Source: Clostridia bacterium
GTDB lineage: Bacteria; Bacillota; Clostridia; Peptostreptococcales; JAAYPU01
Length of the DNA stretch: 64,000 bases
Assembly: GCA_016278615.1 (NCBI GenBank)
Contig: JADQBM010000029.1
Location: 22,668-86,667 of the forward strand
Direction: 5' to 3'
The notes beneath the pieces are model-generated. The model made no database searches. It had not been told where the DNA came from and saw only the letters and a list, made by a program, of their open reading frames with translations. A program made the translations under genes and the position numbers. Within the stretch, counting starts at the first letter, position 1; every line of letters begins with the position of its first letter. Positions 3,864 to 37,909 of the stretch are shown in pieces.

Positions 3864-4769
3864 TTAGCTTAACTTTTCAGGGTATTTTTCTATGGTCATG
3901 GTGGTCATAATATCATCAATATTTTTTTGAATGACATCATTATACATGGCGTTAAGTACTTGGTCATATATTTTTTCCAATGGTTGAAGGCCTTCCATTT
4001 TATCTGTTAATTTGATAATATGAAATCCAAATTCACTTTCAACAATGTCACTGACTTCATTAACTTCTAAAGCAAATGCCGCCTCTTCAAAAGGTTGCAC
4101 CATTTTGCCTCTTGAGAAATAGTCTAAGTCTCCTCCAACCTGAGCGGAACCATCAATGGAATACTGTTGCGCCAATTCAGCAAAATCTTCTCCTGCTTGT
4201 ATCTTTTTTTGAATATCTTCGGCCTCTTCCTTAGTTTTTACAAGAATATGGCTGGCCCTTACTTGGTTAAGGACAAACTCATCTTCGTGGCTTTCATAGT
4301 ACTCTTGGACTGCAGCCTCTGTATCTTCAATGTCTTCAATGACCTTTTCGTTAAATTTTTCTGCATAGAATTGGTCCATCATAACGCGTTTTAAAAACTC
4401 ATTGGTAATATTGTTGTCTGAAAAAAACTTTTGTGTTTCAGTATTTTCTTTTAATGACTCAACATAATCATTATACTGTTTCTCTATCACACTTTCATCC
4501 ACTGGAATATTGTTCTGAACCATATATTCTTTCATAACTTCTAACTGCACAATATTATCAAGAATTACTGCTTTCGCTTCTTTATTAGATGTTTCAGAAT
4601 CAGGATGAGTACCGGTTATAAGAAAATAATATTGGGAAAATTGGTCATTGGTTATAGTTCTATCATTTATTTTGGCTACCACCTCTTCATCCGATGATCC
4701 ACAAGCTGTAACAAATAAGGTTAAAAAACAAATCAATATTAGTTTTATAAATATTCTCTTTTTTATCAT
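3864..4769 (-). CDS. prsA: PrsA-like lipoprotein peptidyl-prolyl isomerase (parvulin)
   Basis: Lipobox LFVTAC-GSS. Parvulin core ASHILVKT..GGDLDYFSRGKMVQPFEEAAF..FGFHIIK. Confidence 0.8.
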   Translation of the reverse strand: MIKKRIFIKLILICFLTLFVTACGSSDEEVVAKINDRTITNDQFSQYYFLITGTHPDSETSNKEAKAVILDNIVQLEVMKEYMVQNNIPVDESVIEKQYNDYVESLKENTETQKFFSDNNITNEFLKRVMMDQFYAEKFNEKVIEDIEDTEAAVQEYYESHEDEFVLNQVRASHILVKTKEEAEDIQKKIQAGEDFAELAQQYSIDGSAQVGGDLDYFSRGKMVQPFEEAAFALEVNEVSDIVESEFGFHIIKLTDKMEGLQPLEKIYDQVLNAMYNDVIQKNIDDIMTTMTIEKYPEKLS

Positions 4770-4843: not shown

Positions 4844-7800
4844 TTATCTGTCCTTAAGTATTTTTTCTAAAAACAAAATTAATTCATTTAACCGATTATC
4901 AAATTGCCTATAGGTCAGTTTGATAAATGGCTTTTTCCCTGCATTAATATGCATTCTTGTGGCATATTCAAAGGCTAAACTATTAATAATATAAGGTTTA
5001 AGTACATTATTTTCATAAAACTCAAAAATAATGCGTCCCTTTTCTTCTCTTATACATGAAATGCCCGCTTTCTCTGCTAAAGATTTGATGTAAGAGATCT
5101 TCATTAAGTTGTACATTTCCAATGGAAGATCCCCGAATCTATCAACCAACTCATCTTCAACTTCAGCCATTTCTTCCTTACATTGAATAGAGGCAATTCT
5201 CTTATATACTTCTACTTTGATGATTTCATCCTGTATGTAATCCTTTGAAATATAGGCATTTATTTCTATTTCTATGGAGACTTCTTTGTGTTTTATATAG
5301 GCTTCGCCTTTGATTTCTTTTACAGTTTGATCCAATAATTTACAGTACAATTCATATCCAATTATCATTAGATGCCCATGCTGTTCAACACCTAACAAGT
5401 TTCCAGCGCCCCTTATCTCTAAATCTCGCATGGCAATCTTAAATCCAGACCCAAACTCAGTAAACTCTTTAATCGCCTTCAATCTTTTTTCAGATTGCTC
5501 TGTTAGCACTTTGTCCTTTTGATAAGCGAAATAAGCATACGCCATACGATTGGATCTTCCCACCCTTCCTCTGAGCTGGTAAAGTTGAGAAAGTCCGAAT
5601 TTATCAGCATCATAAATAATAATGGTATTTGTGTTTTGAATGTCTATTCCTGATTCAATGATGGTGGTACAAACAAGCACATCGTATTTTTTACTCATAA
5701 ATGATATCATAATATTTTCAAGTTCTTTTTCATTCATCTGACCATGTGCAACCGCTACAGAAACATCAGGGACCAATTCTTGTAAATGGGCAGATATTCT
5801 TCGAATCCCCCTTACCCGATTATAAACAAAGAAAACCTGTCCCCCTCTTTCTACTTCTCTTAGAATAGCTTCTTTAATAATTTCTTCTTCATATTCTATA
5901 ACAAAAGTCTGAACCGGAAATCTTTCTTCTGGAGGTTCTTCGATGGTGCTCATATCCCTCAAACCAAGCAGGGACATATGGAGGGTTCTGGGAATTGGTG
6001 TTGCTGACAAGGTCAAAACATCCACATTTTGCTTGAGAAGTTTTATGATTTCTTTGTGTTGAACACCAAATTTTTGCTCTTCATCTATAATCAAAAGCCC
6101 TAAATCTTTAAAAGAAATATCCTTAGATAGGAGACGATGCGTTCCTACTAAAATATCTATGTTGCCATCTTTAACCTTCTTTATGATTTGTGTCTGTTCT
6201 TTTTCTGTTCTAAATCTACTTAACATTTCTATGTTAAAGGGAAACTTACCAAAACGATCTATAAAAGTTGTGTAGTGCTGATTGGCTAATATGGTCGTTG
6301 GCACTAAAACGGCTGCCTGCTTCCCATCTACAGCACATTTAAAAACTGCTCTTGCGGCAACTTCTGTTTTACCATAACCCACATCTCCGCAAAGAAGTCG
6401 ATCCATGGGAATATCGTTTTCCATATCTTCTTTGATTTGTTCAATACACTTCAATTGATCTTCTGTCTCTTCATATGGAAAAGCATCCTCAAACTCTTTT
6501 TGCCAAGACGTGTCTGGGGAAAAAGCATATCCTTTATTGGAATTTCGAATAGCACTCAGTTGGAGAAGCTCTTTTGCCATATCTACAATAGCGCCCTTTA
6601 CCTTTGCCTTTGTTTTTTTCCATTCAACACTGCTTAGTTTATTAATTTTTGGCGTTCCACTATCGGCTCCAATATACTTTTGAACCAAGTCCATTTGCTC
6701 CACGGGAACATATAACATGTCTTCTCCGCCATATTTGATTTTAAAGTAATCTTTTTTAATATTTTGAATTTCCAACTGCTGAATGCCCAAATATTTTCCA
6801 ATGCCATGATTCTCATGAACCACATAGTCCCCTACTCTTAAATCTGTAAAAACCTTTATAGGTTTAGCATCTTTATTGGAAGGTTTATTTTTTTTGATTT
6901 TAGCATTGGCAAAAATATCCGAATCTGTAATGAGTAAAATTTTATCATCAAGATATTCAAAGCCAGTGCTCAAACTGCCTTCTCCTATAACAATCTGGCC
7001 CGGTGATATTGCATAATCTGTAGATGTATACGAAGATGTGTATAGGGTGCAGTTGTGATGATTGCGGTCAAGAAATTCCTTAATATTCGTCATTCTTTCT
7101 GTAGTTGAGCAAGTAATAAATATTTTATACTTTCGCAGGACATATTTTTTTATTTCTTCTTCAAACATATCCATTCTCCCTTGAAATGAAGGTATGGACT
7201 TGGTTGAAGCATTAAGGTTTCCTGATATTTGAAATTGGGAATTGCTTCTTTTAATAAAAGGTGTAAAAAAGAAACACAATTGTTTTTCTAGAATTTGCTG
7301 GTAATCATCCAGTGAGGTCACAATATTAAAATCAAAAGGAATGGCTTCACCCTTTTCTAATAAATATTTAAAATCTTCGTGAATTTCCTTATATGCACTC
7401 TGGATTTTATCTCGTATCCTATCTGGGTCTTCCACAACAACTAAAGCATCTTTTTCCATATAATCCAATAGATATTCAACTTCATCATAAAAATAATGAA
7501 TGTAATTTTCTAATATCTGAAGATTTGTTCGTGTTTGTACAAACTCAAGAAGTTGATCCTTTTTTTGCTGAAGCTTCTCTTTGTTTTCAAGTTTCGAAAG
7601 TTGATCCTCATAGTAAGCCTCTATTTTTAATGCAGCCTTTCTAAATCTTTCTTCATCCGCAACCAATTCTTGTGCCGGGTATACAGATAAAAGCCGAACA
7701 TTCTTAATGGATCGCTGTGTTGAGATATCAAAGGTTCTAATGGAATCAATCTCCGTATCAAACATTTCGATTCGATAAGGTTCCGAAGCGTCTAAAGGGA

Positions 7801-8353
7801 ATATATCCACAATCCCGCCTCTAATACTGTATTGTCCTTTCGCTTCCACTTGATGAGCTCTTTCATAGCCCAATAACATGAGTTTGTTTTGTAGGCTCTC
7901 CTGACTTATTTCCCCTCCTGTTTGTAACTTTAAAGCATTCTTCTCAAAGGCTTCTTGTGGCACCATCTTCTTAAGAAAGCCATCAATTGACGATACGATG
8001 ATGGAAGCTTCTCCCTTTATAATGTTAATAATGGCATTAAGACGCTGCTCTAATAGGTTATGACTTTTAGCATCGTACCTAAAAAAAACCGGATCTTGTC
8101 CCGGTATATAATATACTTTCTTCTCTGTAAAAAAAGCAATATCTTCACTAATCCGTCTCGCAGAACTCTCATTTGCAGTAATAATCAGACATTGTCTATT
8201 ACTACTTTCTGCTAAATAAGCTGCCGCATGTGCAAGGCGACTTTCAGAAAAACCTGCAACATTGATGACGCCACTTTTTTGCATCAAATAAGGTTTAAAT
8301 GATTTTATTGCATGGGTATTATTGGTTTGACTTACAAAAAAACTTCCAATCAT
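4844..8353 (-). CDS. mfd: Transcription-repair coupling factor Mfd
   Basis: 1169 aa. CarD-like GDYVVHENHGIGKY; helicase motifs GDVGYGKTEVA and IIDEEQKFGV; conserved position upstream of pth. Confidence 0.95.
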   Translation of the reverse strand: MIGSFFVSQTNNTHAIKSFKPYLMQKSGVINVAGFSESRLAHAAAYLAESSNRQCLIITANESSARRISEDIAFFTEKKVYYIPGQDPVFFRYDAKSHNLLEQRLNAIINIIKGEASIIVSSIDGFLKKMVPQEAFEKNALKLQTGGEISQESLQNKLMLLGYERAHQVEAKGQYSIRGGIVDIFPLDASEPYRIEMFDTEIDSIRTFDISTQRSIKNVRLLSVYPAQELVADEERFRKAALKIEAYYEDQLSKLENKEKLQQKKDQLLEFVQTRTNLQILENYIHYFYDEVEYLLDYMEKDALVVVEDPDRIRDKIQSAYKEIHEDFKYLLEKGEAIPFDFNIVTSLDDYQQILEKQLCFFFTPFIKRSNSQFQISGNLNASTKSIPSFQGRMDMFEEEIKKYVLRKYKIFITCSTTERMTNIKEFLDRNHHNCTLYTSSYTSTDYAISPGQIVIGEGSLSTGFEYLDDKILLITDSDIFANAKIKKNKPSNKDAKPIKVFTDLRVGDYVVHENHGIGKYLGIQQLEIQNIKKDYFKIKYGGEDMLYVPVEQMDLVQKYIGADSGTPKINKLSSVEWKKTKAKVKGAIVDMAKELLQLSAIRNSNKGYAFSPDTSWQKEFEDAFPYEETEDQLKCIEQIKEDMENDIPMDRLLCGDVGYGKTEVAARAVFKCAVDGKQAAVLVPTTILANQHYTTFIDRFGKFPFNIEMLSRFRTEKEQTQIIKKVKDGNIDILVGTHRLLSKDISFKDLGLLIIDEEQKFGVQHKEIIKLLKQNVDVLTLSATPIPRTLHMSLLGLRDMSTIEEPPEERFPVQTFVIEYEEEIIKEAILREVERGGQVFFVYNRVRGIRRISAHLQELVPDVSVAVAHGQMNEKELENIMISFMSKKYDVLVCTTIIESGIDIQNTNTIIIYDADKFGLSQLYQLRGRVGRSNRMAYAYFAYQKDKVLTEQSEKRLKAIKEFTEFGSGFKIAMRDLEIRGAGNLLGVEQHGHLMIIGYELYCKLLDQTVKEIKGEAYIKHKEVSIEIEINAYISKDYIQDEIIKVEVYKRIASIQCKEEMAEVEDELVDRFGDLPLEMYNLMKISYIKSLAEKAGISCIREEKGRIIFEFYENNVLKPYIINSLAFEYATRMHINAGKKPFIKLTYRQFDNRLNELILFLEKILKDR

Positions 8354-8388
8354 ATGATCACCTTATGAATTTATGTTCCTATTATCAT

Positions 8389-8943
8389 TTAATTATATTC
8401 ATTCATGGCACTGTCTATACTATTAATAATCCATGTCTCTACTGCCGCGGAGGCAGATTTCACCGCATTTTCCATGACTTCTTTTTCTTCTTTGCTAAAA
8501 TTCTGTAGCACATAGTCGCTTAATTGCAAATTTTCATTTCTGCCAATCCCAATACGAATTCTTGGAAAATCATCTGTCATTAAATCATAGATAATGGAAC
8601 GCATGCCGTTATGCGTCCCTGCACTTCCCTTTTTTCTCATTCGAATGGTGCCGGATTCAATATCAATGTCATCATATATCACAATAAGATTTTGATTCTC
8701 TTCTTTATAATATTCCATAATCTCTCTTACACTGTTTCCGCTAAGATTCATAAAAGTTTGAGGTTTCACAATCATTACTTTTTTTCCGCCAATCATGCCC
8801 TCACCTATTAACGCCTTATGCTTAATTTTATTAACTTTTATATTATTTTTACTGGCAAGATAATCCACTGTTATAAAGCCAATGTTATGCCGAGTATTTT
8901 CATACTTTCTTCCCGGATTTCCTAGTCCCACAATTATATACAT
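8389..8943 (-). CDS. pth: Peptidyl-tRNA hydrolase
   Basis: MYIIVGLGNPGRKYENTRHNIGF signature. Start moved to ATG 8943 (GGAG 8 nt upstream) because the track start GTG 8952 abuts the SD. Confidence 0.95.
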   Translation of the reverse strand: MYIIVGLGNPGRKYENTRHNIGFITVDYLASKNNIKVNKIKHKALIGEGMIGGKKVMIVKPQTFMNLSGNSVREIMEYYKEENQNLIVIYDDIDIESGTIRMRKKGSAGTHNGMRSIIYDLMTDDFPRIRIGIGRNENLQLSDYVLQNFSKEEKEVMENAVKSASAAVETWIINSIDSAMNEYN

Positions 8944-8968
8944 TTTCAACACTCCAAACCGTTAACTT

Positions 8969-9164
8969 GAAAGATAATAGATAACAGGTGACAGATAATA
9001 GATGAAAGATAATAGATAATAGTTAAGGTTGGAAATTTGCCATAGCAATTTCCTCATATATTTCTTCAAATTCTTTATAGTATAACTGAAGATTTTGAGT
9101 AACAAAATCATCCACAACTGTTATCTATTATCTGTTATCTATTATCTATCCCTAATCTCTGATC
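8969..9164 (-). repeat. HATH element copy A (heptamer-armed twin-hairpin palindrome), prs|pth spacer
   Basis: Left arm 8969-9028 (AANAGAT heptamers ending AGTTAAGG). Hairpins GGAAATTTGC/AGCAATTTCC (9031-9053) and GATTTTG-agtaa-CAAAATC (9091-9109). Right arm 9113-9164 (TTATCTN heptamers). Strand is orientation relative to copy G. Confidence 0.9.
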
Positions 9165-9174
9165 TTTGTTTTAC

Positions 9175-9199
9175 GGACAACCGCAAGGGTTGTCCCTAC
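9175..9199 (-). repeat. GC-rich TGTAG-hairpin mini-motif embedded in the outer arm of HATH-A
   Basis: The minus strand reads GTAGGGACAACC-cttgc-GGTTGTCC. Arm-like sequence (CTATCTATTGCTATC, carrying the prs stop) resumes on the far side. Confidence 0.7.
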
Positions 9200-9205
9200 G
9201 CATCC

Positions 9206-10162
9206 CTATCTATTGCTATCGAACAATTTGCTCACTGAATCATTGGTATAAATACGGCTTATGGCTTCAGCGAAAATAGGCGCTACAGATAGAACCCTTA
9301 TCTTGTCCATAATCTTACTCTTATTTAGAGGTATTGTATTTAAGACCACCAACTCATCAATAACAGAATCTTGAATTCTACTAATGGCAGGGCCTGAAAG
9401 AACTGGATGGGTGGCACAAGCATATACCTTTTTTGCGCCCAGTTCTTTTAATGACTTGGCACTGTTTGTTATGGTTCCTGCTGTATCAATCATATCATCC
9501 ACTAAGATAACATTCTTATTCTTTATCTCTCCAATAACATTCATGACTTCTGCAACATTTGCTTTTGGCCTTCTTTTATCAACGATCGCTATGGGTGCAT
9601 CAAGGTAATTAGCAAAATTTCTAGCTCTTGTAACACTTCCAATATCTGGGGAAACAACAACAATATCCTCCAACTGAAGATCGCAGAAATATTTGACTAA
9701 AATAGGAACACCCAACAAATGATCTACTGGTATGTCAAAATAGCCTTGGATCTGAGAAGCATGCAAGTCCATGCTTAAGACTCTATTGGCTCCTGAACTT
9801 GTAATAAGATTCGCTACAAGCTTAGAGGTAATGGGATCTCTTGCCTTTGTTTTCCTATCTTGTCTTGCATACCCATAATATGGCATAACTGCTGTAATTC
9901 GTCCGGCTGAAGCCCTTTTCATAGCATCCGTCATGATTAAAAGCTCCATGAGATTATTGTTAACAGGCTCACACGTGGATTGAATGATGTAGACATCTGC
10001 CCCTCTAACGGTCTCATTTATATCAACAGATATCTCTCCATCACTAAAAACGCCAACTGAGGAATTACCCAATTCCTTGCCCATGCATAATGCAATTTCC
10101 TTAGCAAGTTCTTTGTTTGAATTCCCTGTAAATACTTTAATTTCTCGACCAAGATTTCTCAT
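9206..10162 (-). CDS. prs: Ribose-phosphate pyrophosphokinase
   Basis: [11 protein letters not shown] and PRPP loop [13 protein letters not shown]; 318 aa. Confidence 0.95.
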
Positions 10163-10175
10163 TTGTCAATCTCCT

Positions 10176-11549
10176 TCATTCTCTGCTTAGTTTTTTTCTA
10201 TCCACCCAACCCTTAATATGTTTTTGTTTCTCTCTTCCGATACATAATGTGCCTTCTGGCACCTCCACTGTAACGGTGGTTCCAGCAGCCACATACCCTC
10301 TTTTATGAACTTTCAAAGGTGCAACGAGGTTCACATTGCTTCCAATAAAAGCATTGTCCTCGACAATTATTTTTTGCTTCTCTTTTCCATTATAATTGAC
10401 AAAAACAACGCCGCACCCAATATTGACGTTTTTTCCTACTTCAGCATCCCCCACATAGGCCAAATGTGAAGCCTTTGTTCCATCTCCAATAATTGAATTT
10501 TTTATCTCAACAAAATCTCCAATTTTAACATTTTTCCCAATACAACTCCCGGGCCTTAAATAGGCAAAAGGACCTATGGTCGTCCCTTGTTTAACGCTAC
10601 TGTCAATTAGAACTGAATTCTGAATCTGAACATGATCCTCTATGGTTGAGTTTTCTATTCTGCTGTTACTCCCAACCATACAATTCTCTCCGATTACAGT
10701 ATTCCCCTTAATGATCACACCAGGATATATGATTGTATCCATTCCAATGGATACTCCAGAATCTACATATGCATGCTCTGGATTAATAAAAGTTACCCCT
10801 TGATCCATATGCTTTTCCACGATTCGTTTGCGCATAATCCCTTCAGCCTCAGCGAGTTGCCTTCTTGAATTAACCCCTAGTATTTCTTCCGTATTTAAAA
10901 GGCTATAAGTTCCTAATGCATACCCATTCTGAACACCTATTTCAATTAAGTCTGTCAGATAATATTCTCCCTGAACATTATTGGGACAAATTTCTGAAAG
11001 GTGCTTCTTCAATAAATCTCCACGAAAACAATAAACACCTGAATTTATTTCTTTGATTAAGCGTTCTTGATCCTCTGCATCTTTTTCTTCTACAATCTTA
11101 ATAAGCTTCCCATCTGATTCCTTTACAATTCTACCATATCCAAAAGGGTTTTCAACCATTGCCGTAAGAACTGTCATGTCTAAATGGTTGTCTTCATGAA
11201 ATGCCATTAAAGAAATGATGGTTTCCCGTTGAATGAGGGGCATATCACCACACAAAACAATTACATGCCCCTCCTCAGGAATATTTTTTTCTGCCATAAG
11301 TACTGCGTGCCCGGTTCCCATTCGTTTTTCCTGAAAAACAAATTGCAAATTAAAATCCTTCAGACTACTTTCAACTTCTTGTGAACCCTCTCCAATGACT
11401 GCTGTAATATCTTCTACATTTGAAGCTTTTACTTCTTCAAGAACCCGCTCAATCATACTCTTTCCACATATTTTATGCAAAACTTTTGGGAGTCTTGATT
11501 TCATACGGGTACCTGCTCCCGCAGCTAATACAATCGCACTATTTGCCAT
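10176..11549 (-). CDS. glmU: Bifunctional UDP-GlcNAc pyrophosphorylase / GlcN-1-P acetyltransferase
   Basis: N-terminal LAAGAGTRMKS nucleotidyltransferase motif and C-terminal left-handed beta-helix hexapeptide repeats; 457 aa. Confidence 0.95.
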   Translation of the reverse strand: MANSAIVLAAGAGTRMKSRLPKVLHKICGKSMIERVLEEVKASNVEDITAVIGEGSQEVESSLKDFNLQFVFQEKRMGTGHAVLMAEKNIPEEGHVIVLCGDMPLIQRETIISLMAFHEDNHLDMTVLTAMVENPFGYGRIVKESDGKLIKIVEEKDAEDQERLIKEINSGVYCFRGDLLKKHLSEICPNNVQGEYYLTDLIEIGVQNGYALGTYSLLNTEEILGVNSRRQLAEAEGIMRKRIVEKHMDQGVTFINPEHAYVDSGVSIGMDTIIYPGVIIKGNTVIGENCMVGSNSRIENSTIEDHVQIQNSVLIDSSVKQGTTIGPFAYLRPGSCIGKNVKIGDFVEIKNSIIGDGTKASHLAYVGDAEVGKNVNIGCGVVFVNYNGKEKQKIIVEDNAFIGSNVNLVAPLKVHKRGYVAAGTTVTVEVPEGTLCIGREKQKHIKGWVDRKKLSRE

Positions 11550-11711
11550 ATGGATACACTCCTCTTTTTTTCCTGATATTCGGTCGTCCTATATTTAACA
11601 TATTATCCGTTTTTATACTTCAGTATAAGTTTTTCTGAATATTATTTAAAATTAGCAAGGTCTAAATAACAAAAATAGTATATCATTTTTATTTCTCTTC
11701 TAAAAGCGTTT

Positions 11712-11746
11712 AAAAAAGAAACCTCAAATATTTGAGGTTTCTTTTT
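11712..11746 (-). terminator. Bidirectional intrinsic terminator after spoVG
   Basis: AAAAAGAAACCTCAAAtatTTGAGGTTTCTTTTT. Confidence 0.8.
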
Positions 11747-11770
11747 GACAATAATATTATTTCATATGTA

Positions 11771-12073
11771 CTATTCTTCAGCAACTGCTAAAACACTGAT
11801 TTCCGAATCTTCCATCTCTAATCTTGCTTTATCGTATTCACTAAATATCGCTTCTTTTATTTTATTTCTTGTCTCTGAGTTTAAAGGGTGTGCAATATCT
11901 CTATAATCTCCTTCTCCCATCTTCCTACTAGGCATTGCAATAAACAATCCGTTCTGCCCTTCGATTATTTTGATATCATGAACAACAAATTCATCATCGA
12001 ATGTTACAGATACGATTGCTTTCATCTTACCTTCATCGCTAACCTTTCTTACTCTTACGTCAGTTACTTTCAC
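11771..12073 (-). CDS. spoVG: Septation/sporulation regulator SpoVG
   Basis: [40 protein letters not shown] is near-canonical SpoVG. Confidence 0.95.
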
Positions 12074-12190
12074 ACTGACTCACCACCTTTCTTAGCCATC
12101 CTTTAATGTTTTAAAGACTATAAAACAAAAACACGAATTTTTTGTTATATTCTCCATATTTCGTAAATATCCTTCTTTTTTTTTCGAATT

Positions 12191-12997
12191 TTATAGATTA
12201 TTATTAGGATGTGCCCGGATAATCTTGTTTTCCACATCCACTTCTTCTATAAAAATTAAAGAAACATACTCTTCTACGAGCTTCTTCTCTGGCTTTTTGG
12301 TTGAAATCAGTACGCCAATTCCTACAACTTCTATATCAAATTCAGTTAAAATATCAACGATCCCTCTTGCAGTGCCGCCGCCCTTCATAAAATCATCAAT
12401 TATAATGGCTCGACTTCCAGGCTTAATGGCTCTTTTGGATAAAGACATTTTTTGTATCCTATCAGTGGAACCGGATATGTAATTAATGCTAACAGTCGAT
12501 CCTTCGGAAACCTTGCTTTCTCTTCGTGCAACCACAAGGGGTAAATTTAGAGCATCTGCTGTCATAACAGCAAGAGGAATTCCCTTTGTTTCCACCGTTA
12601 CCACATAGTCCGCTTTTTTATCAGAAAACTGAGTCGCAAAAACCTCTCCTGCTCTTTTAATAATAGACGAGGTAAACATAATATCTGAAGTATATAAAAA
12701 ACCACCTGCCAAAACTCTATTTTCATCCCTTAATTTCAAACATAAATGATCCAGCAGAATTTTTGTGTCTTCTTTGGAAATAACGGGCATATACTTCACG
12801 CCTCCGGCAGCTCCTGAAAGTGTCTCTATTTTTCCCAGCTTCATATTTTCCATAATCTTCTTTGCAATTACAATATCTTCGCTGATACTGGATTTAGCAG
12901 AATCAAACTTATTTGTAAAGAAGTTAAGGGTAAATATTTTATTTGGATTTGAACTGAGTATTTTAATAATGGCACCAATTCTTTCGTTCCTTTTCAT
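12191..12997 (-). CDS. purR: Purine operon repressor PurR
   Basis: PurR N-terminal DNA-binding domain plus PRT fold with IIDDFMKGGGT; 268 aa; sits next to spoVG as in Bacillus. Confidence 0.9.
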   Translation of the reverse strand: MKRNERIGAIIKILSSNPNKIFTLNFFTNKFDSAKSSISEDIVIAKKIMENMKLGKIETLSGAAGGVKYMPVISKEDTKILLDHLCLKLRDENRVLAGGFLYTSDIMFTSSIIKRAGEVFATQFSDKKADYVVTVETKGIPLAVMTADALNLPLVVARRESKVSEGSTVSINYISGSTDRIQKMSLSKRAIKPGSRAIIIDDFMKGGGTARGIVDILTEFDIEVVGIGVLISTKKPEKKLVEEYVSLIFIEEVDVENKIIRAHPNNNL

Positions 12998-13097
12998 CTC
13001 AATCCTCCAAAGACTAAATAAATCACTTATTTATCAATCTCGCTCTATGTTTTCATGTGTATATTCTTGGATATATGTGGGAAATATTATTTTAATA

Positions 13098-13127
13098 TTG
13101 ACAATAAATACATATCAATCATACTAT
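13098..13127 (+). promoter_or_regulatory. Candidate murC promoter
   Basis: TTGACA (13098-13103), 18-nt spacer, TACTAT (13122-13127), in the purR/murC divergent region. Confidence 0.3.
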
Positions 13128-13213
13128 ATAATAATGATACCCTATCTACTGTTAATGAACAAGATGAACTTTAGTATAAACAACAGGTTTTCTATACTAG
13201 GAGGTATTCTAAA

Positions 13214-14614
13214 ATGAATTGCGATCAAGAAGCAAAATATTATCACTGTATTGGAATAGGCGGCATCGGGCTTAGTGCAATAGCGGAAATCTTATTAGCC
13301 AAAGGTTATAAAGTATCGGGTTCCGATATAAAAGAATCTGATATCACTCAATCTTTGGAAAACCATGGCGCTACTATTTACATAGGACATGATGAATCCA
13401 ATATTTCAAATTGTGACACTGTCATTTATACCTCAGCAGTATCAGATGACAATCCTGAATTAATATCAGCTAGAAAAAAGAATATTCCTACTTTATCTCG
13501 TGCTGAAATGCTGGGTCAAATTATGAAGGATTATTCTCACAATATCGCTGTTTCTGGAACTCATGGAAAAACAACAACGACTTCTATGGTCTCGCTAATA
13601 TTGGAAGATGGCCATTTTGATCCTACTATTTTAGTAGGTGGAAAATTAGATAAAATTGGGGGAAATGTTAAAATTGGAAAAGGTCCTTTTTTAATAACGG
13701 AAGCCTGTGAATATATGGATAGTTTCTTAGAACTAAATCCAAAAATAGAAATCATCCTAAATATTGATTCAGATCATTTGGATTACTTTAAAGACATTGA
13801 TCACATCGTAAGTTCTTTCCAGAAATTTGCGAATTTAGTCCCTATAGATGGTTTAATTGTGGCTTATAGTGCCAATGCTTTTGTGAAAAGTATCATCCAT
13901 AATGTATCTTGTAAGACCGTTACTTTTGGTTTTGATGATAGCTGTGACTACTACGCAAACCATATAGAATTCAACTCTGAAGGAATGCCTCTATTTGATG
14001 TATATTATTCTGGCGAAAAATTATGTGCCATACAACTGCTGGTTCCTGGAGAACATAATATTAGCAATTCTCTTGCAGCCATTGCATGTTGCCATACTTT
14101 AGGGGTCTCTATAGACGTAATTGTTAAAACCCTTGAAAGCTTTGAAGGGACTAAAAGAAGATTTGATATCATAGGCATTACGCCAGATCTTTTAAAGGTA
14201 GTGGATGATTATGCACATCATCCAGAAGAAATCAAAGCAACGCTGAGCGCCTGTAAAAATGTCCCCCATAAAAAATTATGGTGTGTCTTCCAGCCCCATA
14301 CTTATACAAGAACAAAAGCTCTTTTCGAGGAATTTACAGATGCTTTTGATTTTGCGGATGGTATTATTATTACAGATATTTATGCCGCCAGAGAAAAAAA
14401 TATCTATAAAATAAAAGCATCAGACTTAATCGATGAAATTAAAAAGAAACATCCTAATAAAAAAGATATTTATTATATCTCAGATTTCGAAGATATCGCA
14501 GATTTTATAATAGAAAAAACCAACCCAAAAGATCTTGTCATAACCATGGGTGCTGGGGATGTTTATAAGGTAGCAGAGCGGATTATGGAGAAGACGAAAA
14601 CAACCGAGAACTGA
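13214..14614 (+). CDS. murC: UDP-N-acetylmuramate--L-alanine ligase
   Basis: GIGGIGLSAIAE Rossmann motif and P-loop GTHGKTTTTSM, with Mur ligase middle and C-terminal domains. The last codons and stop lie in the outer heptamers of HATH-B. Confidence 0.95.
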   Translation: MNCDQEAKYYHCIGIGGIGLSAIAEILLAKGYKVSGSDIKESDITQSLENHGATIYIGHDESNISNCDTVIYTSAVSDDNPELISARKKNIPTLSRAEMLGQIMKDYSHNIAVSGTHGKTTTTSMVSLILEDGHFDPTILVGGKLDKIGGNVKIGKGPFLITEACEYMDSFLELNPKIEIILNIDSDHLDYFKDIDHIVSSFQKFANLVPIDGLIVAYSANAFVKSIIHNVSCKTVTFGFDDSCDYYANHIEFNSEGMPLFDVYYSGEKLCAIQLLVPGEHNISNSLAAIACCHTLGVSIDVIVKTLESFEGTKRRFDIIGITPDLLKVVDDYAHHPEEIKATLSACKNVPHKKLWCVFQPHTYTRTKALFEEFTDAFDFADGIIITDIYAAREKNIYKIKASDLIDEIKKKHPNKKDIYYISDFEDIADFIIEKTNPKDLVITMGAGDVYKVAERIMEKTKTTEN

Positions 14615-14786
14615 GAACTGGAAACTTAAAACTGAGAGATAATAGATAAGAGATAATAGATAACAGTTAAGGAAGGCTTTTGCGTAGAATACGCAAAAGC
14701 CCTCTTTTTTATCTGATGAAAGTTTTGTTATACAAAACTATCCTCAACTCTTATCTATTATCTGTTATCTTTTATCTCTCACTTAT
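14606..14786 (-). repeat. HATH element copy B, murC|amidohydrolase convergent spacer
   Basis: Ten in-phase heptamers at 14606-14672, starting inside the murC 3' end. Hairpins GGCTTTTGCGTA-gaa-TACGCAAAAGCC (14675-14701) and AGTTTTG-ttata-CAAAACT (14721-14739). Right arm 14740-14786. Confidence 0.9.
14675..14710 (+). terminator. murC terminator formed by the first mini-hairpin of HATH-B
   Basis: 12-bp perfect stem GGCTTTTGCGTA/TACGCAAAAGCC followed by CTCTTTTTT. Confidence 0.75.
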
Positions 14787-14795
14787 GCCTTTTAT

Positions 14796-15950
14796 TTATA
14801 TCTTTTGACGGTAGACGATCTTCCCATCTATCAGGGTCATTTTAACTCTGCTATCGAGTTCAAAAGGGTGTTTATCCCATATGACGATGTCTGCGTCTTT
14901 GCCTTCTTTGAGGCTTCCTATTTTGTCGTCTACTCCTAATATTTCAGCAGGATAGAGGGTAATTGCTTTTAATGCCTCATCTCTATCTAAACCTGCTTTA
15001 ACGGCAAGTGCCGCGCATAAGGATAAGTATTGAATGGGGATAACACCATGGTCTGTCATAATGGCAATCTTAATCCCTGCTTTATTCAATATTCCCGGCG
15101 TATCAAAGGTCAGATTTCTAAGTTCAACTTTACTTCTTTCAGAAAGGGTGGGACCAATAATGGCAGGATACCCCTCTTCTTTTAAATATTCCACAATAAG
15201 ATGTCCTTCTGTGCAATGATCCAAAGTCATTCTTAAGTCAAACTCTTTTGCAATGCGAATCGCTGTAAAAATATCATCCGCCCTATGCACATGTGCCTTC
15301 ATGGGTATTTCCTTTTTTAACAAAGGAATTAACACTTCATATTGCATGTCGTAGTCTGGATGCTTTTCTTCATCATCCAATTCTTTTTTCCTAAGGTACT
15401 CTTTTGCTTCTAGAAGGGTTTCTCTGAGTATTGCTGCCGTCGCCATCCTTGTTAAAGGTGTTTTATGTTGATCTCCATAGACCCTTTTGGGGTTCTCGCC
15501 AAAAGCACACTTTATTGCTGCAGGCTCCATAACCACCATATCATCTATTCTTTTACCAAAGGTTTTAATAACAGCAAATTGCCCTCCAATAACATTTGCA
15601 CTTCCAGGACCTGTAGCTGTAGCTGTAACACCTGCTTGATATGCTTCTTCAAAAGCTCGGTCCATTGGATTTATAGCATCTATTGCTCTAAGGTGTGGTG
15701 TCACCGGGTCTGTCGATTCGTTACCGTCTGCACCCTCAATATCAATTCCATCTTCCCACATGCCCACGTGACAGTGGGCATCAATGAATCCTGGCATCAC
15801 AATGCACCCTTCTGCATCAATTATCTCTCCTTCATTGACATGTATCTCAGTGGCGATTTCTTTGATTTTTCCATCTTCTATTAAAATACACCCTTTTTCA
15901 AGGTTCTTTCCCTCCATGGGAAATATGGCAGCATTTTTTATAAGAATCAT
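14796..15950 (-). CDS. Metal-dependent amidohydrolase family protein
   Basis: Amidohydrolase HxH motif GFIDAHCHVGM; 384 aa; substrate not assignable. Confidence 0.7.
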   Translation of the reverse strand: MILIKNAAIFPMEGKNLEKGCILIEDGKIKEIATEIHVNEGEIIDAEGCIVMPGFIDAHCHVGMWEDGIDIEGADGNESTDPVTPHLRAIDAINPMDRAFEEAYQAGVTATATGPGSANVIGGQFAVIKTFGKRIDDMVVMEPAAIKCAFGENPKRVYGDQHKTPLTRMATAAILRETLLEAKEYLRKKELDDEEKHPDYDMQYEVLIPLLKKEIPMKAHVHRADDIFTAIRIAKEFDLRMTLDHCTEGHLIVEYLKEEGYPAIIGPTLSERSKVELRNLTFDTPGILNKAGIKIAIMTDHGVIPIQYLSLCAALAVKAGLDRDEALKAITLYPAEILGVDDKIGSLKEGKDADIVIWDKHPFELDSRVKMTLIDGKIVYRQKI

Positions 15951-15970
15951 TTTACCCCTCCTTGGATGGT

Positions 15971-16294
15971 TAAGGATATAAGATAAGAGATAATAGATAA
16001 TAGATAATAATTATGGATGATTTTGTTTCACAAAATCTAGATTGTCTCATAATCTGTCCTGAATTATTACCAAGATTTAATCTTTAGTATCAATAAAAAT
16101 GAAGATTCTGGAACAAAATCCACCTCAACTCTTGAAGCCCTAGCTCAAATCTTCGATTTGATGTGCAGGTGTCATACAAGTGGAACTTTCTAATCTATGA
16201 TTAGTTAAAGTTGCCATTCGCTCTGTGGAAACTCTCCAATCTTTGATTGGTAAGAGTTTTTCAGTTATCTGTTATCTATTATCTATCTCTAACC
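15971..16294 (+). repeat. HATH element copy C (long variant with nested module), HAD|amidohydrolase spacer
   Basis: Left arm 15971-16016. GATTTTG-tttca-CAAAATC (16018-16036). Second degenerate GATTCTG-gaa-CAAAATC (16104-16120). Nested module 16131-16263. Right arm 16264-16294. Confidence 0.85.
16131..16263 (+). repeat. Nested hairpin module (long form) inside HATH-C
   Basis: CTTGAAGCCCTAGCTCAAATCttcGATTTGA..CATACAA, then two related hairpins (AACTTTCTAATCtatGATTAGTTAAAGTT and AAACTCTCCAATCtttGATTGGTAAGAGTTT), ending GTTTTTCAG. It sits between the junction and the right arm. Confidence 0.8.
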
Positions 16295-16305
16295 TCTCCT
16301 CTATT

Positions 16306-16953
16306 CTATCTTTCTAAAATCTTAATAATATCTTCCACCTTCTCTATGACATAATCAGGACTTTCTATCATGTACTCCTCTGCTGAAAGCTCGCTCCATG
16401 CGACAATGGCTGATTGAACGCCAGCATTTTGAGCGCACTTAATATCAAACAAGCTATCGCCTATCATTAAAGTTTGTTCAGGTTTACTCTGTAGCTTTTT
16501 TAGAGCCATGTTTATGGGTTCTGGGTCCGGCTTATGTTTTTTGGTATCATCTGCTGTAATAATACATTGAAAGTATTCCATTAAGTGATACTTTTCCAAA
16601 CCTCTAATAGATGTATTTCTTAGCCTTGATGTTACAACACCCAACTTATAGCCTTTGTTAAATAAGCTGATGACAGCCTCTGCCATACCCGGAAAAATTT
16701 CAATCAGGTTTTCGAAACTCTCGTGATGAAAACTTCTATAAATTTGTATTGCCTCTTCAACGGGAACATTAAATTCTCTTTTCATGGTAAGCGCAAGTGG
16801 CTCACCAAAAGATTTAACGATATATTCCCGATCCTTTTCTATACCTGATACCGTTCTATAAGTATGTTGAAAGGATTGTACAATAAGATTATTGGTATCA
16901 AGAACCGTTCCATCCAAATCAAAAAGTATGGTATCTATCTTCACCTTTGCCAC
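16306..16953 (-). CDS. HAD-IA family phosphatase (PpaX/phosphoglycolate phosphatase-like)
   Basis: Motif I FDLDGTVLDT and motif IV GDSLFD; 215 aa. Confidence 0.75.
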   Translation of the reverse strand: MAKVKIDTILFDLDGTVLDTNNLIVQSFQHTYRTVSGIEKDREYIVKSFGEPLALTMKREFNVPVEEAIQIYRSFHHESFENLIEIFPGMAEAVISLFNKGYKLGVVTSRLRNTSIRGLEKYHLMEYFQCIITADDTKKHKPDPEPINMALKKLQSKPEQTLMIGDSLFDIKCAQNAGVQSAIVAWSELSAEEYMIESPDYVIEKVEDIIKILER

Positions 16954-16954
16954 C

Positions 16955-19243
16955 TCAATTACTTAAATTTATCATACTGAGAGAGACTCTTCCTCTCTCA
17001 TGATCTATATCAATGATTTTAACTGTCACCACATCTCCTACGCCTATTATGTCCGTAGGATGCTTGATATAGTTTTCACTTATTTGGGAAATATGTACCA
17101 AACCATCATTTTTAACACCAATATCTACAAAGGCGCCAAAATCCACAACGTTTCGAACGGTTCCAGTTAACTCCATATCTAATTTCAAATCCTCAAATTT
17201 TAGAACATCACTTCTTAAAACCACTTTTGGCATTTCTTCTCGGGGGTCTCTCCCTGGCTTAATATACTCTTTTACGATATCTTCCAAAGTAGGCAATCCT
17301 ATGGTTAACTCAGAAGCGATTTTTGATAAGTTGTAACGCATTTTTTCTTCTTTTGAAAGGCTCTTTTGTTGTTTTCCTTCCGCCATTTTTAGGTCAGCCA
17401 TTTCCTGAAAGTTCTTTATTCTTTTTTTAGGCTGCTTCAAGGCGGGTTTTTCAGGTTCCTCTTTAGCAAAGGATATTATTTTTTCTTCAATCATTTTATT
17501 GCCACCCTTGCGAAGGGTTGCATGGTCTATTTCTAATAAAGACATCAATTTTTCTGCAGCCTCATAAGATTCCGGATGAACAGCGGTGGCATCTAGAGCA
17601 TTTATGCCATCTGAAATTCTTAAAAACCCAGCACATTGTTCATATGCTTTATTCCCTAACTTAGATACTTTTTTTAGTTCTGTTCTTTTCTTGAACTTTC
17701 CGTTTTCTTCTCTGTATATAATAATATTTTTTGCAATAGAGGCATTGATTCCAGAAATGTATTTAAGTAGAGATGATGATGCTGTATTTAGATCTACGCC
17801 TACTCGGTTTACGCAATCTTCAATAATATGGGTAAGGGACTCGTCTAACATGGATTGGTTCACATCATGTTGATACTGTCCTACTCCAATATGTTTTGGG
17901 TCAATTTTTACAAGTTCCGCTAATGGGTCCTGAAGCCGCCGTCCAATGGATAACGAGCCTCGTGTGGTAACATCTAAATCCGGGTATTCTTCTGTTGCTA
18001 ATTTAGATGCTGAATAAACAGACGCCCCTGCTTCACTTACAATTGTGAAATGTACTTCTCTATCAATTTCTTTAAGGACTTCCGATATGAAGTGCTCTGT
18101 CTCTCGAGATGCCGTGCCATTTCCTATTGCAATAACATCTATATTATATTTATTGATGAGGTTCATTATAACCGTTTTGGATTTTTTCACTTCGTTTTGA
18201 GGAGGATTTGGGTAAACAGTGGTAAATTCCAACAGTTTTCCAGTCTCGTCCAAAACTGTAATCTTACACCCAGTTCGAAAACTGGGATCCACACCCATTA
18301 CCTTTGCCTCTTTGATAGGCGGAGACATAAGAAGCTTCTCTGTATTCTTTGCAAAAACCTTTACAGCTTCTTTCTCTGCTCTTTCTGAAAGTATATTTCG
18401 CACTTCCCTTTCTATAGAGGGTGCTATGAGTCTTTTATAAGCGTCTTCAATGGTTTTTTCTATATAGGGAGTAGACTGGGCATGAGAATTTGTTACCACA
18501 TGTTCATTGAGTTTAAAAAGAATCTGTTGAGCAGGCGCTACTAATTTGACCTTAAGTTTCTTTTCTTTTTCTCCCCTATTAATTGCCAGGATTCTATGGT
18601 TGGGAATTTTAGAAACTGATTCAGTATAATGGTAATACATTTCATAAACTGTTTTCTCTTCTTCATCAACTGCTTCAGATAATATGGACCCTTCCTTCAA
18701 GGTCAGATTGCGGATTTCATCTCTAAACTGAGGGTTATCAGAAATTTGTTCAGCTATGATGTCCATTGCACCACCAATGGCCTCTTCCACTGTATGGACA
18801 CCTTTTTCTTCATCAAGATAGGCTTTGGCAAGATCTTCAATATTATCCGTATTCATTTCTTGAGCTAACAAAAAGCTTGCAAAAGGTTCTAGTCCTTTTT
18901 CCTTTGCCTTAGATGCCCGTGTGCTTTTTTTCTGTTTATAGGGCCGATATAAATCTTCCACTCTTTGGAGCACTTGGGCAGCAGTAATTTCTTGTTTTAA
19001 TTCTTCTGTTAACTTTCCCTGTTCCTCAATAAGCTTTAAGACTTCTTGTTTTCTTTCTGCAAGATTTCTCAGGTATTGAAGACGTTCATGTAAATCTCTC
19101 AAAATGACATCGGACAGGCCGCCTGTCATTTCTTTACGATATCTGGCAATAAAGGGAATGGTATTGCCATCATCTATGAGTTGTATGGTGCTTTCAACTT
19201 GGGACACTTTAATATGAAATTCTTTAGCAAGCTGTTGTATCAT
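16955..19243 (-). CDS. tex: Tex-like RNA-binding transcription accessory protein
   Basis: 762 aa. Tex N-terminal, YqgF-like and HhH regions; C-terminal S1 domain GTVRNVVDFGAFVDIG. Confidence 0.9.
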   Translation of the reverse strand: MIQQLAKEFHIKVSQVESTIQLIDDGNTIPFIARYRKEMTGGLSDVILRDLHERLQYLRNLAERKQEVLKLIEEQGKLTEELKQEITAAQVLQRVEDLYRPYKQKKSTRASKAKEKGLEPFASFLLAQEMNTDNIEDLAKAYLDEEKGVHTVEEAIGGAMDIIAEQISDNPQFRDEIRNLTLKEGSILSEAVDEEEKTVYEMYYHYTESVSKIPNHRILAINRGEKEKKLKVKLVAPAQQILFKLNEHVVTNSHAQSTPYIEKTIEDAYKRLIAPSIEREVRNILSERAEKEAVKVFAKNTEKLLMSPPIKEAKVMGVDPSFRTGCKITVLDETGKLLEFTTVYPNPPQNEVKKSKTVIMNLINKYNIDVIAIGNGTASRETEHFISEVLKEIDREVHFTIVSEAGASVYSASKLATEEYPDLDVTTRGSLSIGRRLQDPLAELVKIDPKHIGVGQYQHDVNQSMLDESLTHIIEDCVNRVGVDLNTASSSLLKYISGINASIAKNIIIYREENGKFKKRTELKKVSKLGNKAYEQCAGFLRISDGINALDATAVHPESYEAAEKLMSLLEIDHATLRKGGNKMIEEKIISFAKEEPEKPALKQPKKRIKNFQEMADLKMAEGKQQKSLSKEEKMRYNLSKIASELTIGLPTLEDIVKEYIKPGRDPREEMPKVVLRSDVLKFEDLKLDMELTGTVRNVVDFGAFVDIGVKNDGLVHISQISENYIKHPTDIIGVGDVVTVKIIDIDHERGRVSLSMINLSN

Positions 19244-24403: not shown

Positions 24404-24445
24404 AGCGCACTCCTGCATCAAATAATGGATTTATTATTTTATATG

Positions 24446-24466
24446 GCGGGAGACCCGCCCCTACAA
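24446..24466 (-). repeat. GC-rich TGTAG-hairpin mini-motif next to HATH-D
   Basis: The minus strand reads TGTAGGGGCGGG-tct-CCCGCC. Confidence 0.7.
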
Positions 24467-24490
24467 ATACTTTTCAGATGACATAATGAG

Positions 24491-24632
24491 AATTTTGTGT
24501 AACAAAATATCCTTAATTATTGAAGACCTAACTCAAATCTATGATTTGAAATGTAGGTCTCATACAGAAACTCTTCAATCTTTGATTGGCTAAGAGTTTT
24601 TCAGTTAATTGTTAATTCTTAATTCTTCATTG
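24491..24632 (-). repeat. HATH element copy D (partial: one hairpin, nested module, TTAATTN arm; no left arm), ahcY|mtaD spacer
   Basis: ATTTTG-tgtaa-CAAAAT (24492-24508). Junction CCTTAATTA. Module 24520-24603. Four TTAATTN heptamers at 24605-24632, ending 8 nt from the ahcY stop. Confidence 0.75.
24520..24603 (+). repeat. Nested hairpin module (short form) inside HATH-D
   Basis: TTGAAGACCTAACTCAAATCtatGATTTGAAATGTAGGTCTCATACAG, then AAACTCTTCAATCtttGATTGGCTAAGAGTTTTTCAG. The ends are colinear with the C module, and one hairpin unit is missing. Confidence 0.8.
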
Positions 24633-24639
24633 ATATTTA

Positions 24640-28195: not shown

Positions 28196-28283
28196 ATTTC
28201 TTTCCTTTCTTGTTGTAAATAATAATTAATCTCACTGTTAATAACTATATTATATGGTTTTGACTTCTATGTGTCAACATCAG

Positions 28284-28790
28284 GGAAATCGAAATTTAAG
28301 TTTAAGCTTGAGTTAAGTAGCTTTATGTTTATTTTAATCATTTTTTTCTGTTTCATTGATTATTTTTTGAAAAATATATAAACTAAGTGATGTGATAAAA
28401 AATGGAAATTGAAGTTTAAGTGTAAGTTTAAGTAAAAATGTGGAAGCTTAAGTGTAAGTTCAAGTGAAAAGTGGAAGTATAAGTGTAAGTCATGTAGGGG
28501 CTGGTCCTGTGCCTGCCCGAAGTAAGTAGGAGTGAAAGTGAAAGTTTAAGTTTAAGTATAAGCGAAAAGTTTGTAGGGGCTGGTTCCTGTGCCTGCCCGA
28601 AGTAAGTAGGAATGGTGGAAGTGTAAGTGTAAGTAAAAGTGGAAGTTTGAGTTTGTAGGGGGCTGGTCCTGTGCCTGCCCGACAAAGAGAAGCTGGAGTC
28701 TAAGTTTATGTGGAAATATAAGTATAAGCGGATTTACACTTAACACTACAACTCTAAGTGTTGTTCAACTATACTTATACTTCATAATAT
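28284..28790. repeat. AAGTNN-hexamer repeat region with three ~80-nt tandem units and a terminal mini-palindrome (HATH-related variant J)
   Basis: Two tracts both start GGAAAT(C/T)GAA(A/G)TTTAAGT (28284, 28404). Three units of hexamer tract plus a 38-39-nt GC motif start at 28493, 28572 and 28654. Terminal inverted arms GAAATATAAGTATAAG (28713-28728) and CTATACTTATACTTC (28769-28783) surround the hairpin ACACTTA/TAAGTGT. Confidence 0.85.
28493..28682 (+). repeat. Three copies of the GC-rich TGTAG-hairpin motif in region J
   Basis: TGTAGGGGCTGGTCCTGTGCCTGCCCGAAGTAAGTAGG at 28493-28530 and 28572-28610 (one extra T); truncated copy at 28654-28682. Stem GGGC(T)GG/CC(T)GCCC. Confidence 0.85.
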
Positions 28791-28805
28791 GGAAGGATGA
28801 TAAAT

Positions 28806-37669: not shown

Positions 37670-37695
37670 AATACTTAGTTTAATAGTCCATTGGA

Positions 37696-37866: not shown

Positions 37867-37909
37867 GAGTATAATGACGCTTTTATTAGCGTTGCTATAT
37901 TCTTTTTTT
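37866..37909 (+). terminator. Expression-platform intrinsic terminator of the glycine riboswitch
   Basis: GGAGTATA-atg-ACGC [ttttatta] GCGT-tgc-TATATTCT followed by TTTTTT. Its 5' strand starts at the last base of aptamer-2 P1. Confidence 0.6.

Follow-up and report, generated by a model that had tools for sequence, protein, structure and literature searches.

Results

The murC 3′ end lies in one arm of a two-hairpin element

We analysed a 64-kb stretch of DNA (hereafter the window) from the metagenome-assembled genome (MAG) of a spore-forming member of the Clostridia, with 35.7% G+C and proteins nearest to those of Anaerovoracaceae. An earlier note on this DNA had flagged positions 14606-14672, at the 3′ end of murC, as a period-7 array rich in stop codons. 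The array is in phase as described: from 14606 onward on the plus strand the sequence reads GAGAACT GAGAACT GGAAACT TAAAACT GAGAGAT AATAGAT AAGAGAT AATAGAT AACAGTT AAGG, or about 9.5 heptamers. Tandem Repeats Finder (TRF) reports period-7 arrays at 14602-14637 (AACTGAG), 14637-14663 (AGATAAT) and, inverted, 14751-14777 (TTATCTA). The flagged stretch belongs to an element, B (~14600-14787), as its left arm; the two arms of B form an inverted repeat of 51 nt that is 84% complementary. The spacer and its genes are laid out as follows, coordinates being those of the window.

13214-14614, plus strand: murC, an open reading frame (ORF) with Mur ligase domains and homologues annotated as UDP-N-acetylmuramate-L-alanine ligases; its last codons, GAG AAC TGA, lie within the outer heptamer array
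14600-14636, plus strand: outer left arm of B, degenerate AACTGAG-type heptamers holding the murC stop (TRF)
14637-14664, plus strand: inner left arm of B, four AGATAAN heptamers
14665-14672, plus strand: junction motif AGTTAAGG of B (family consensus AGTTNNGG, from the alignment of half-elements)
14675-14713, plus strand: hairpin 1 of B (beta half), facing murC; stem-loop 14675-14701, GGCTTTTGCGTA-GAA-TACGCAAAAGCC, then CTCTTTTTTATC (terminator scan and minimum-free-energy fold)
14721-14739, plus strand: hairpin 2 of B (alpha half), AGTTTTGT-TAT-ACAAAACT, AT-rich and without a T-tract on either strand
14742-14787, plus strand: junction CCTCAACT and right arm of B, four NTTATCT units followed by degenerate units
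14796-15950, minus strand: amidohydrolase-family gene, convergent with murC (ORF and homology)

The outer arm unit at murC, AACTGAG, matches the published TAACTGA unit at 6 of 7 positions, and the main arms consist of AGATAAN. At the other end, the degenerate units of the right arm come within 9 nt of the amidohydrolase stop codon (14796-14798). Folded as RNA, either strand of B gives a Y-shaped structure (-69.5 or -76.9 kcal/mol, z about -10). Two independent Logan contigs with identical murC, L003 (3059 nt) and L004 (1506 nt), end inside B, in the right arm and in the outer left arm, respectively, which indicates that these repeats fragment short-read assemblies.

Element B is one of nine related copies in the window

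Nine related non-coding elements of 127-322 bp each lie in the window and make up ~20% of its intergenic DNA. A covariance model built on 34 half-units finds 17 half-units in the window, all within the nine elements and none in coding sequence; the match over hairpin 2 of B (14716-14749, minus strand) scores 44.3 bits. The copies are:

8968-9165: element A, prs-to-pth spacer
~14600-14787: element B, murC/amidohydrolase spacer, the flagged copy
15974-16295: element C, spacer separating the amidohydrolase gene from a HAD-family phosphatase gene; enlarged internally, in part by a small repeat nested beside the right arm
24480-24635: element D, a single half-element; its TTAATTN arm is broken by the same nested small repeat as in C
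34601-34737: element E, spacer between fabZ and a phosphoglucomutase-family gene
39300-39504: element F, AATGAAN/NTTCATT arms; the stop of a saccharopine dehydrogenase (SDH)-family gene lies inside the left arm
48108-48302: element G, downstream of a kept hydrogenase terminator (48069-48100), with the trmB stop in its outer right arm
48960-49116: element H, between the kept terminator of a radical-SAM (nrdG-like) gene (49120-49143) and the trmB ribosome-binding site
52774-52900: element I, DUF4015-to-YkuD spacer

The plan of the family is [AGATAAN]n-AGTTNNGG-hairpin-spacer-hairpin-CCNNAACT-[NTTATCT]n. Each half-unit consists of purine-rich heptamers, then AGTTNNGG, then a mini-hairpin with a TTTTG...CAAAA core, and a full element holds two half-units in inverted orientation. 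The alpha mini-hairpin, GATTTTG-loop-CAAAATC, often has TTCAT directly after it and is separated by a T/A-rich spacer from the beta mini-hairpin, AGTTTTGC-loop-GCAAAACT. In the alignment of 34 half-elements, two G and the T at motif position 3 of AGTTNNGG are invariant. Once oriented, the cores are colinear from alpha to beta with a mean column identity of 66%, and unrelated loci have in common a polar core of 85-110 nt, made up of AGTTNNGG, the alpha hairpin, the spacer and the beta hairpin. In the genome, the cores of G, I and F are on the plus strand and those of H, A, B and E on the minus strand. As the cores align colinearly in both orientations, the dispersed unit is the whole polar element and not a chance pairing of arrays.

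All nine elements touch a spacer that holds a gene 3′ end, often just past the native terminator, and none lies in the eight divergent spacers. The element has no Rfam match at the gathering threshold (the sole match in the window scan is a glycine riboswitch elsewhere), and no similarity to it was found in plasmid or phage collections.

A CAT triplet occurs at a fixed distance 3′ of the mini-hairpin in ~19 of the 34 half-units (for example at 14716-14718, 48195-48197 and 52829-52831), and its opposite strand is an ATG that opens onto the stop-free strand of the arm. Small peptides read outward from this conserved ATG were considered and rejected: there is no Shine-Dalgarno sequence, and frame and length shift with arm copy number. 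Because a ribosome-binding site is lacking, the CAT/ATG is probably not coding; it may be a stem extension or a recognition or cleavage motif.

Copies are present at some orthologous sites and absent at others

A pattern scan for GATAANAGTTNNGG-N4-5-TTTTG-N4-8-CAAAA in one genome per species (185,579 species) gave multiple matches only in three Clostridia MAG species, JAENZQ01, JAAYPU01 and CAZKKX01. Elsewhere there were eight single matches, which fall in unrelated sequence and are rejected by the covariance model. Among the genomes scanned, the element is restricted to a few Anaerovoracaceae-like MAGs. A cyanobacterial (STRR-like) origin was rejected, as the MurC, TrmB and SDH-family homologues are those of Anaerovoracaceae and other Clostridia.

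Loci of relatives (L-numbers) were recovered through their MurC, TrmB and SDH-family homologues. At site H, L024 is empty, with the native terminator, 24 nt and the trmB ribosome-binding site following one another; the window and a closer relative, L025, carry an element of ~150 nt there. At site G, L024 has a different filler, and the window and L025 have the element downstream of the kept hydrogenase terminator. Over the same syntenic 42 kb, the window holds 13 half-units versus 1-2 in the L024 relative, a ~6-fold difference. Copies at orthologous sites differ in the number of arm units, and at site F the unit type is also different, in both arms at once: AATGAAN/NTTCATT in the window versus AATTAAG/CTTAATT, seven times, in L026. 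Together, these comparisons show that copies have multiplied in the lineage and occupy some orthologous sites but not others.

The hairpins are conserved in structure, and only one clearly resembles a terminator

Pairing in the mini-hairpins is kept across copies: 85.8% of cells in the alignment are paired, three pairs switch among GC, AU and CG types, and 40 cells are changed on both sides, a level of compensatory change reached in none of 500 shuffles. G-U pairs (13) and A-C pairs (11) are balanced, which means that no single RNA strand is favoured; a hairpin acting on one RNA strand was rejected on this ground. Selection for exact pairing of the arms was likewise rejected, as left/right identity is 0.71 within elements and 0.68 between them; the variable seventh bases agree no better between the two arms of an element than from one element to another.

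According to the earlier note, the mini-hairpins of B and F have a T-tract and look like intrinsic terminators. This holds for hairpin 14675-14701 of B, which together with its T-rich tail CTCTTTTTTA meets the terminator pattern with a stem of 12 pairs, six of which are GC. In the terminator scan of 8000-17000, which covers elements A-C, none of the other mini-hairpins was called; most are AT-rich and lack a T-tract, although by eye the left hairpins of F and G precede T-rich runs. Clear terminator-like anatomy thus appears limited to the left hairpin of B. Ordinary strong terminators are present elsewhere in the window. At G and H, each upstream gene still has its native terminator, with the element located beyond it, indicating that the element is not needed there as a terminator, and a hairpin is kept beside I. 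Outward promoters (-35 in the hairpin and TATTAT in the arm, flagged at A and C) were also rejected, with 40 promoter-like matches versus 34.3 +/- 7.0 in shuffles.

Heptamer composition nearly forces stop codons in the arms

As had been claimed, every one of the 17 arms closes all three frames, with one or more stops in each, when read inward from the adjacent gene. In the outward direction, 10 of the 17 are free of stops and the remaining seven have 1-4 altogether. From the letters of a unit alone, the probability that it contains a stop is 1.00 for AGATAAT, AATGAAT and AATTAAG (every ordering) and 0.6-0.93 for the other units; the exception is the pyrimidine-rich AGGTCTC, with 0.27, which indeed has none. 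The arms carry ~1.4 times as many stops as their dinucleotide shuffles, and shuffled arms close all frames in 17-94% of trials. The earlier note had accepted that its proposal, a symmetric stop-plus-terminator cassette, would fall if shuffled AT-rich sequence gave the same stop density and coincided equally often with gene stop codons, and this is largely what we observed. Since almost any unit of such composition must contain a stop, and a 7-nt period shifts the frame from one unit to the next, closure of all frames comes as a built-in by-product of the arrays.

The same strand preference extends beyond this family. Of the 33 arrays that lie no more than 60 nt from a gene 3′ end, 28 close every frame on the gene's sense strand and none does so on the antisense strand only. 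This rule spans ~12 heptamer types, and arrays farther from gene ends show no bias. The sense strand is 63-83% purine in 28 of the 33 (range 0.50-0.83). For the TAACTGA repeats, which stop all frames, MacGregor (2015; PMC4679880) noted that gene ends consequently overlap them by at most 18 nt.

Period-7 arrays are abundant in the DNA of this clade, and the pattern is therefore no random match. In 206 kb, 74 arrays of at least three units have period 7, compared with 18, 18, 9, 0, 2, 0, 4 and 1 arrays for periods 4, 5, 6, 8, 9, 10, 11 and 12, respectively, and 75 of the 76 position-scored arrays are intergenic. The units are diverse: AGATAAN, AATGAAN, AATTAAG, AACTGAN, GATCTAT, GGTCTCN (13 copies), AGTGATT, CTCTAAC and others.

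Three genes end on stops supplied by the arms

The genes named in the earlier note were correctly identified, and the stops that it placed inside arms are there: the murC TGA (14612-14614) straddles heptamer units 1 and 2, the TGA of the SDH-family gene (39328-39330) lies inside the AATGAAN array, and the trmB TAA, the complement of 48295-48297, falls inside a CTTATCT unit. The stops of fabZ, lrgB and ahcY are near an arm as claimed, at a distance of 4-13 nt rather than 3-8 nt. With the HAD and amidohydrolase genes included, the stops of these genes are 4-20 nt from recognisable units, and those of the prs, hydrogenase, radical-SAM (nrdG-like) and DUF4015 genes are 30-57 nt away with another hairpin in between.

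The trmB end is CTT GAA TAA (ATLE*) in L025 and CTT GAA TAC GAA AGA TAA (ATLEYER*) in the window, a loss of the stop (TAA to TAC) that the first arm unit rescues three codons on. For the SDH-family protein, the L026 end is KAKEKV* and the window end KAKMKNVMNNEK*, with extra codons that are degenerate AATGAAN units. MurC ends ...EKTKTTEN* in the window and ...EKTNKEMKE* in its closest relatives, both stops lying inside arrays; this tail is variable across all orthologues. Stops of genes in relatives lie just outside or at the edge of arrays. The idea that the element had replaced native C-termini stands insofar as TrmB, the SDH-family protein and MurC each end in 3-9 residues that are array-encoded and unlike those of close relatives. 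The process is better described as stop loss or tail drift with read-through to an arm stop. Overall, arm stops took over as working stops, through stop loss in trmB and through changes of the C-terminal tail in the SDH-family protein and MurC.

Other repeats and features nearby

Spacers of L008 (MAG JAAYPU01; 1156-1612, 2381-2657, 3980-4260 and 7400-7700) carry modular trains in which different heptamers follow one another in an order that recurs: GGTCTCN in up to 13 copies, AGTGATT, a block of 14-nt period (AACTATTGTTYAAC), a GGAGAAATTTTGC hairpin and TTTCAGT. The last is the complement of AACTGAN, that is, the published TAACTGA unit, and exact AACTGAN arrays also occur in L008. AATCACT arrays, seen in relatives only, match the WATCACW heptads of the omega repressor, possibly by coincidence.

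GC-rich hairpins starting with GTAG on one strand (for example GTAGGGACAACCCTTGCGGTTGTCC, GTAGGGGCGGGTCTCCCGCC and GTAGGGGCTGGTCCTGTGCCTGCCC) lie in the window at 9173-9200, 24445-24464 and in three copies within 28493-28682, as well as at site G of L024 and in L010 and L015, some of them inside or beside heptamer-armed elements. They resemble classical REP sequences with a GTAG tag and make up a second repeat family, separate from the element. The small repeat nested in C (~16131-16261) and D (~24526-24603), ...CCTARCTCAAATCT...GAAACTCTYCAATCTTTGATTGG(C)TAAGAGTTTTTCAG, sits in the heptamer arm, each time directly after TTGAAG, and the arm resumes beyond it; no copy was found in the relatives' loci. 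Within the divergent spacer 28196-28796, positions 28411-28682 hold period-6 arrays (TAAGTG/TAAGTT) among three copies of an 83-nt unit with the GTAG hairpin. Site I of L024 has a related palindrome with hexamer or 12-mer arms.

Upstream of the SDH-family gene at 37993 lies a glycine-GGAnGA riboswitch (37688-37868, plus strand, 144 bits); as it occupies this region, a 93-aa ORF on the opposite strand (37675-37956) is probably spurious. A 345-nt tandem repeat of 1.9 copies, 91% identical, at 58857-59500 is within a 1379-aa ORF (57119-61258) and presumably represents a duplicated protein domain. A HutP-family gene (PF09021) is present in L024 (19505-19909), adjoining an IclR regulator gene.

Discussion

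A probable dispersed repeat with stops as a by-product of composition

The flagged stretch is probably one copy of a lineage-restricted, non-coding dispersed repeat of the kind of MITEs (miniature inverted-repeat transposable elements) or REPINs, with its stop codons a by-product of composition. The arm strand turned outward, to the gene, is rich in A and purines with one or two T, so that nearly every unit would contain TAA, TAG or TGA, and with a period of 7 three units would close all frames. The consequence would be passive: an array could abut or overlap a gene end without a long junk extension and, where the native stop is lost, the next arm stop would act within a few codons. The stops would probably explain why the element is tolerated so near genes, a role that we regard as plausible. 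Some hairpins, such as the left one of B, may in addition terminate transcription or stabilise 3′ ends, although probably not as a general property. Candidate routes of spread are a transposase acting in trans, or recombination and conversion.

Several observations weigh against a repeat of this kind. Three spacers (pth-prs, murC-amidohydrolase and amidohydrolase-HAD) carry arrays not only in the window but also in a relative whose MurC is 81% identical; the units differ, and the hairpin is present in most cases. Such shared arrays could reflect long-term retention under selection rather than selfish spread. There is no transposase among the scanned window genes, and no target-site duplication was identified, as the arms merge gradually with the flanking sequence and divergence of the empty-site genome obscures the junctions. 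The enrichment in spacers with a 3′ end is not significant within this one window (p = 0.07-0.32). Finally, the orientation rule exceeds the geometry of a single family, so that some selection for a purine- or stop-rich sense strand, or for a terminator-like geometry of A-tract, hairpin and T-tract, may also be at work. The rule fits equally a bidirectional terminator (A-rich arm, hairpin, T-rich arm) or selection against translatable extensions.

The cassette proposed in the earlier note, in which selection maintains a symmetric stop for ribosomes in any frame followed by a stop for polymerase, serving the genes on both sides, draws on several of these features. All arms close every frame inward, arrays near 3′ ends, whatever their heptamer type, are consistently oriented with the stops on the sense strand, among the left hairpins that of B has a canonical terminator shape and those of F and G precede T-rich runs, A-rich arm, hairpin and T-rich arm have the geometry of a stretched bidirectional terminator, and arrays and hairpins persist at the same spacers in diverged relatives. 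We nonetheless consider it unlikely. The stops are forced by composition, and the genes have stops of their own, in relatives just outside or at the edge of the array. Native terminators are kept beside G and H, and a hairpin beside I, most mini-hairpins are AT-rich, lack a T-tract and escape the scan, and a relative is empty or has a different sequence at the same sites. Moreover, same-strand genes flank six of the nine elements, a position in which a strong terminator would deprive the second gene of transcription.

An origin without mobility, in which native bidirectional terminators grew heptamers in place by replication slippage and came to resemble one another by convergence or gene conversion, would account for the period-7 arrays of many unrelated units that fill the intergenic DNA of the clade and for orthologous spacers whose arrays have different units; an excess of slippage heptamers is also known as a lineage-specific phenomenon (Mrazek 2007, as summarised in PMC4679880). 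This origin appears distinctly unlikely, given that a specific polar core of 85-110 nt is common to unrelated loci in both orientations, that elements stand beside native terminators and not in their place, that sites occupied in some genomes are empty at the orthologous position in another, and that copy density differs ~6-fold between relatives over 42 kb.

The strict 7-nt phasing might instead mark cooperative sites for an oligomeric protein, either an omega-like ribbon-helix-helix protein or a HutP-like ring, so that the arrays would be regulatory or boundary modules. The plasmid omega repressor binds WATCACW heptads, and the HutP RNA-binding ring reads UAG triplets every 7 nt. The AATCACT arrays of relatives match the omega consensus, AATAGAT units give UAG-N4-UAG, and the HutP-family gene in the L024 contig is a candidate. 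However, units vary widely between elements (AGATAAN, AATGAAN, AATTAAG, AACTGAG, GATCTAT, GGTCTCN and others), so that no single sequence-specific protein fits. HutP-type sites were rejected because three consecutive UAG are rare, the seventh base being variable. Omega-type heptads were rejected as well: they occur only in the relatives' AATCACT arrays, and given ~25 unit types we estimate the chance expectation of such a match at ~8%. We regard protein binding as very unlikely.

The dispersed repeat that we favour could also be a more active one. The half-unit, with its 5′ tag AGTTNNGG, a hairpin constant in structure though not in sequence, and the 3′ CAT, might be the substrate of a dedicated enzyme acting on single-stranded DNA (a RAYT/IS200-like HUH transposase or similar), whose copying would lay 7-nt units on both arms, with the host exploiting the modules as translation stops independent of frame, 3′-end protectors and transcription boundaries. 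Symmetric laying of units would explain why both arms of an orthologous copy switch unit type together. We hold this scenario to be improbable; if true, the element would be a self-extending boundary module, and a mobile hairpin core would link it to the heptamer repeats, so far unexplained, seen in Cyanobacteria, Beggiatoaceae and Bacteroidetes.

Relation to known repeats

Intergenic direct repeats of TAACTGA and mixed heptamers were described by MacGregor (2015; PMC4679880) in Beggiatoaceae, Cyanobacteria (Microcystis) and some Bacteroidetes, with 7-nt indels and contigs that break within the repeats; repeats of the TAACTGA type fall among the 'long simple sequence repeats' with heptanucleotide units (Mrazek et al. 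2007). Our arrays resemble them in their tandem 7-nt units, nearly all intergenic, in their mixed heptamers, in indels between relatives and assemblies that break in arrays, and in having one strand that stops all frames while the reverse strand is open, so that gene ends can overlap them only to a limited extent. They differ in forming inverted arms around a conserved, dispersed two-hairpin core, in occurring in a lineage of Clostridia, for which those repeats were not reported, and in that most face gene 3′ ends and do not lie just upstream of starts.

The element shares several traits with MITEs: it is small and non-coding, exists in dispersed copies, has terminal inverted repeats and shows filled and empty orthologous sites. 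It also shares with REP, BIME and REPIN sequences (Bertels and Rainey 2011, PMC3116915; PMC3733652) short extragenic hairpins with compensatory pairing, inverted doublets that fold into a larger hairpin, many copies and a location at gene ends. The structure-conserved palindrome arranged as inverted doublets is present, but the GTAG or CGTC tag at the foot of REP hairpins is absent, the conserved 5′ motif here being AGTTNNGG. The stems are AT-rich, the heptamer arms are long, and no RAYT was identified in the 64-kb window and the scattered loci of relatives. The GTAG-tagged GC-rich hairpins of the same window are distinct in sequence from the element.

The nearest functional precedent among Firmicutes is SPRITE (PMC3049150), a terminator-like dispersed repeat enriched at gene 3′ ends, for which its authors were undecided between tolerance and co-option. 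Like SPRITE, our element is AT-rich, under 200 bp, dispersed, strongly folded and near gene 3′ ends, has A-rich and T-rich ends around a hairpin, is confined to a narrow clade and may have been co-opted as a terminator. No sequence relation between the two was shown; the element has two hairpins instead of one long duplex, and its ends are heptamer microsatellites of variable length instead of fixed terminal repeats.

Significance

Heptanucleotide microsatellites have long been noted, without explanation, in several phyla, and here they are tied to a dispersed hairpin element. Its arrays shape protein ends, as loss of a stop is rescued by the next stop in the arm, and it accounts for variable C-terminal tails and contig breaks in the annotation of these MAGs. 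The family also offers a tractable system for two questions: are the small repeats found at gene ends selfish passengers, or have they been co-opted to terminate transcription and buffer stops, and why is a unit of 7 nt favoured?

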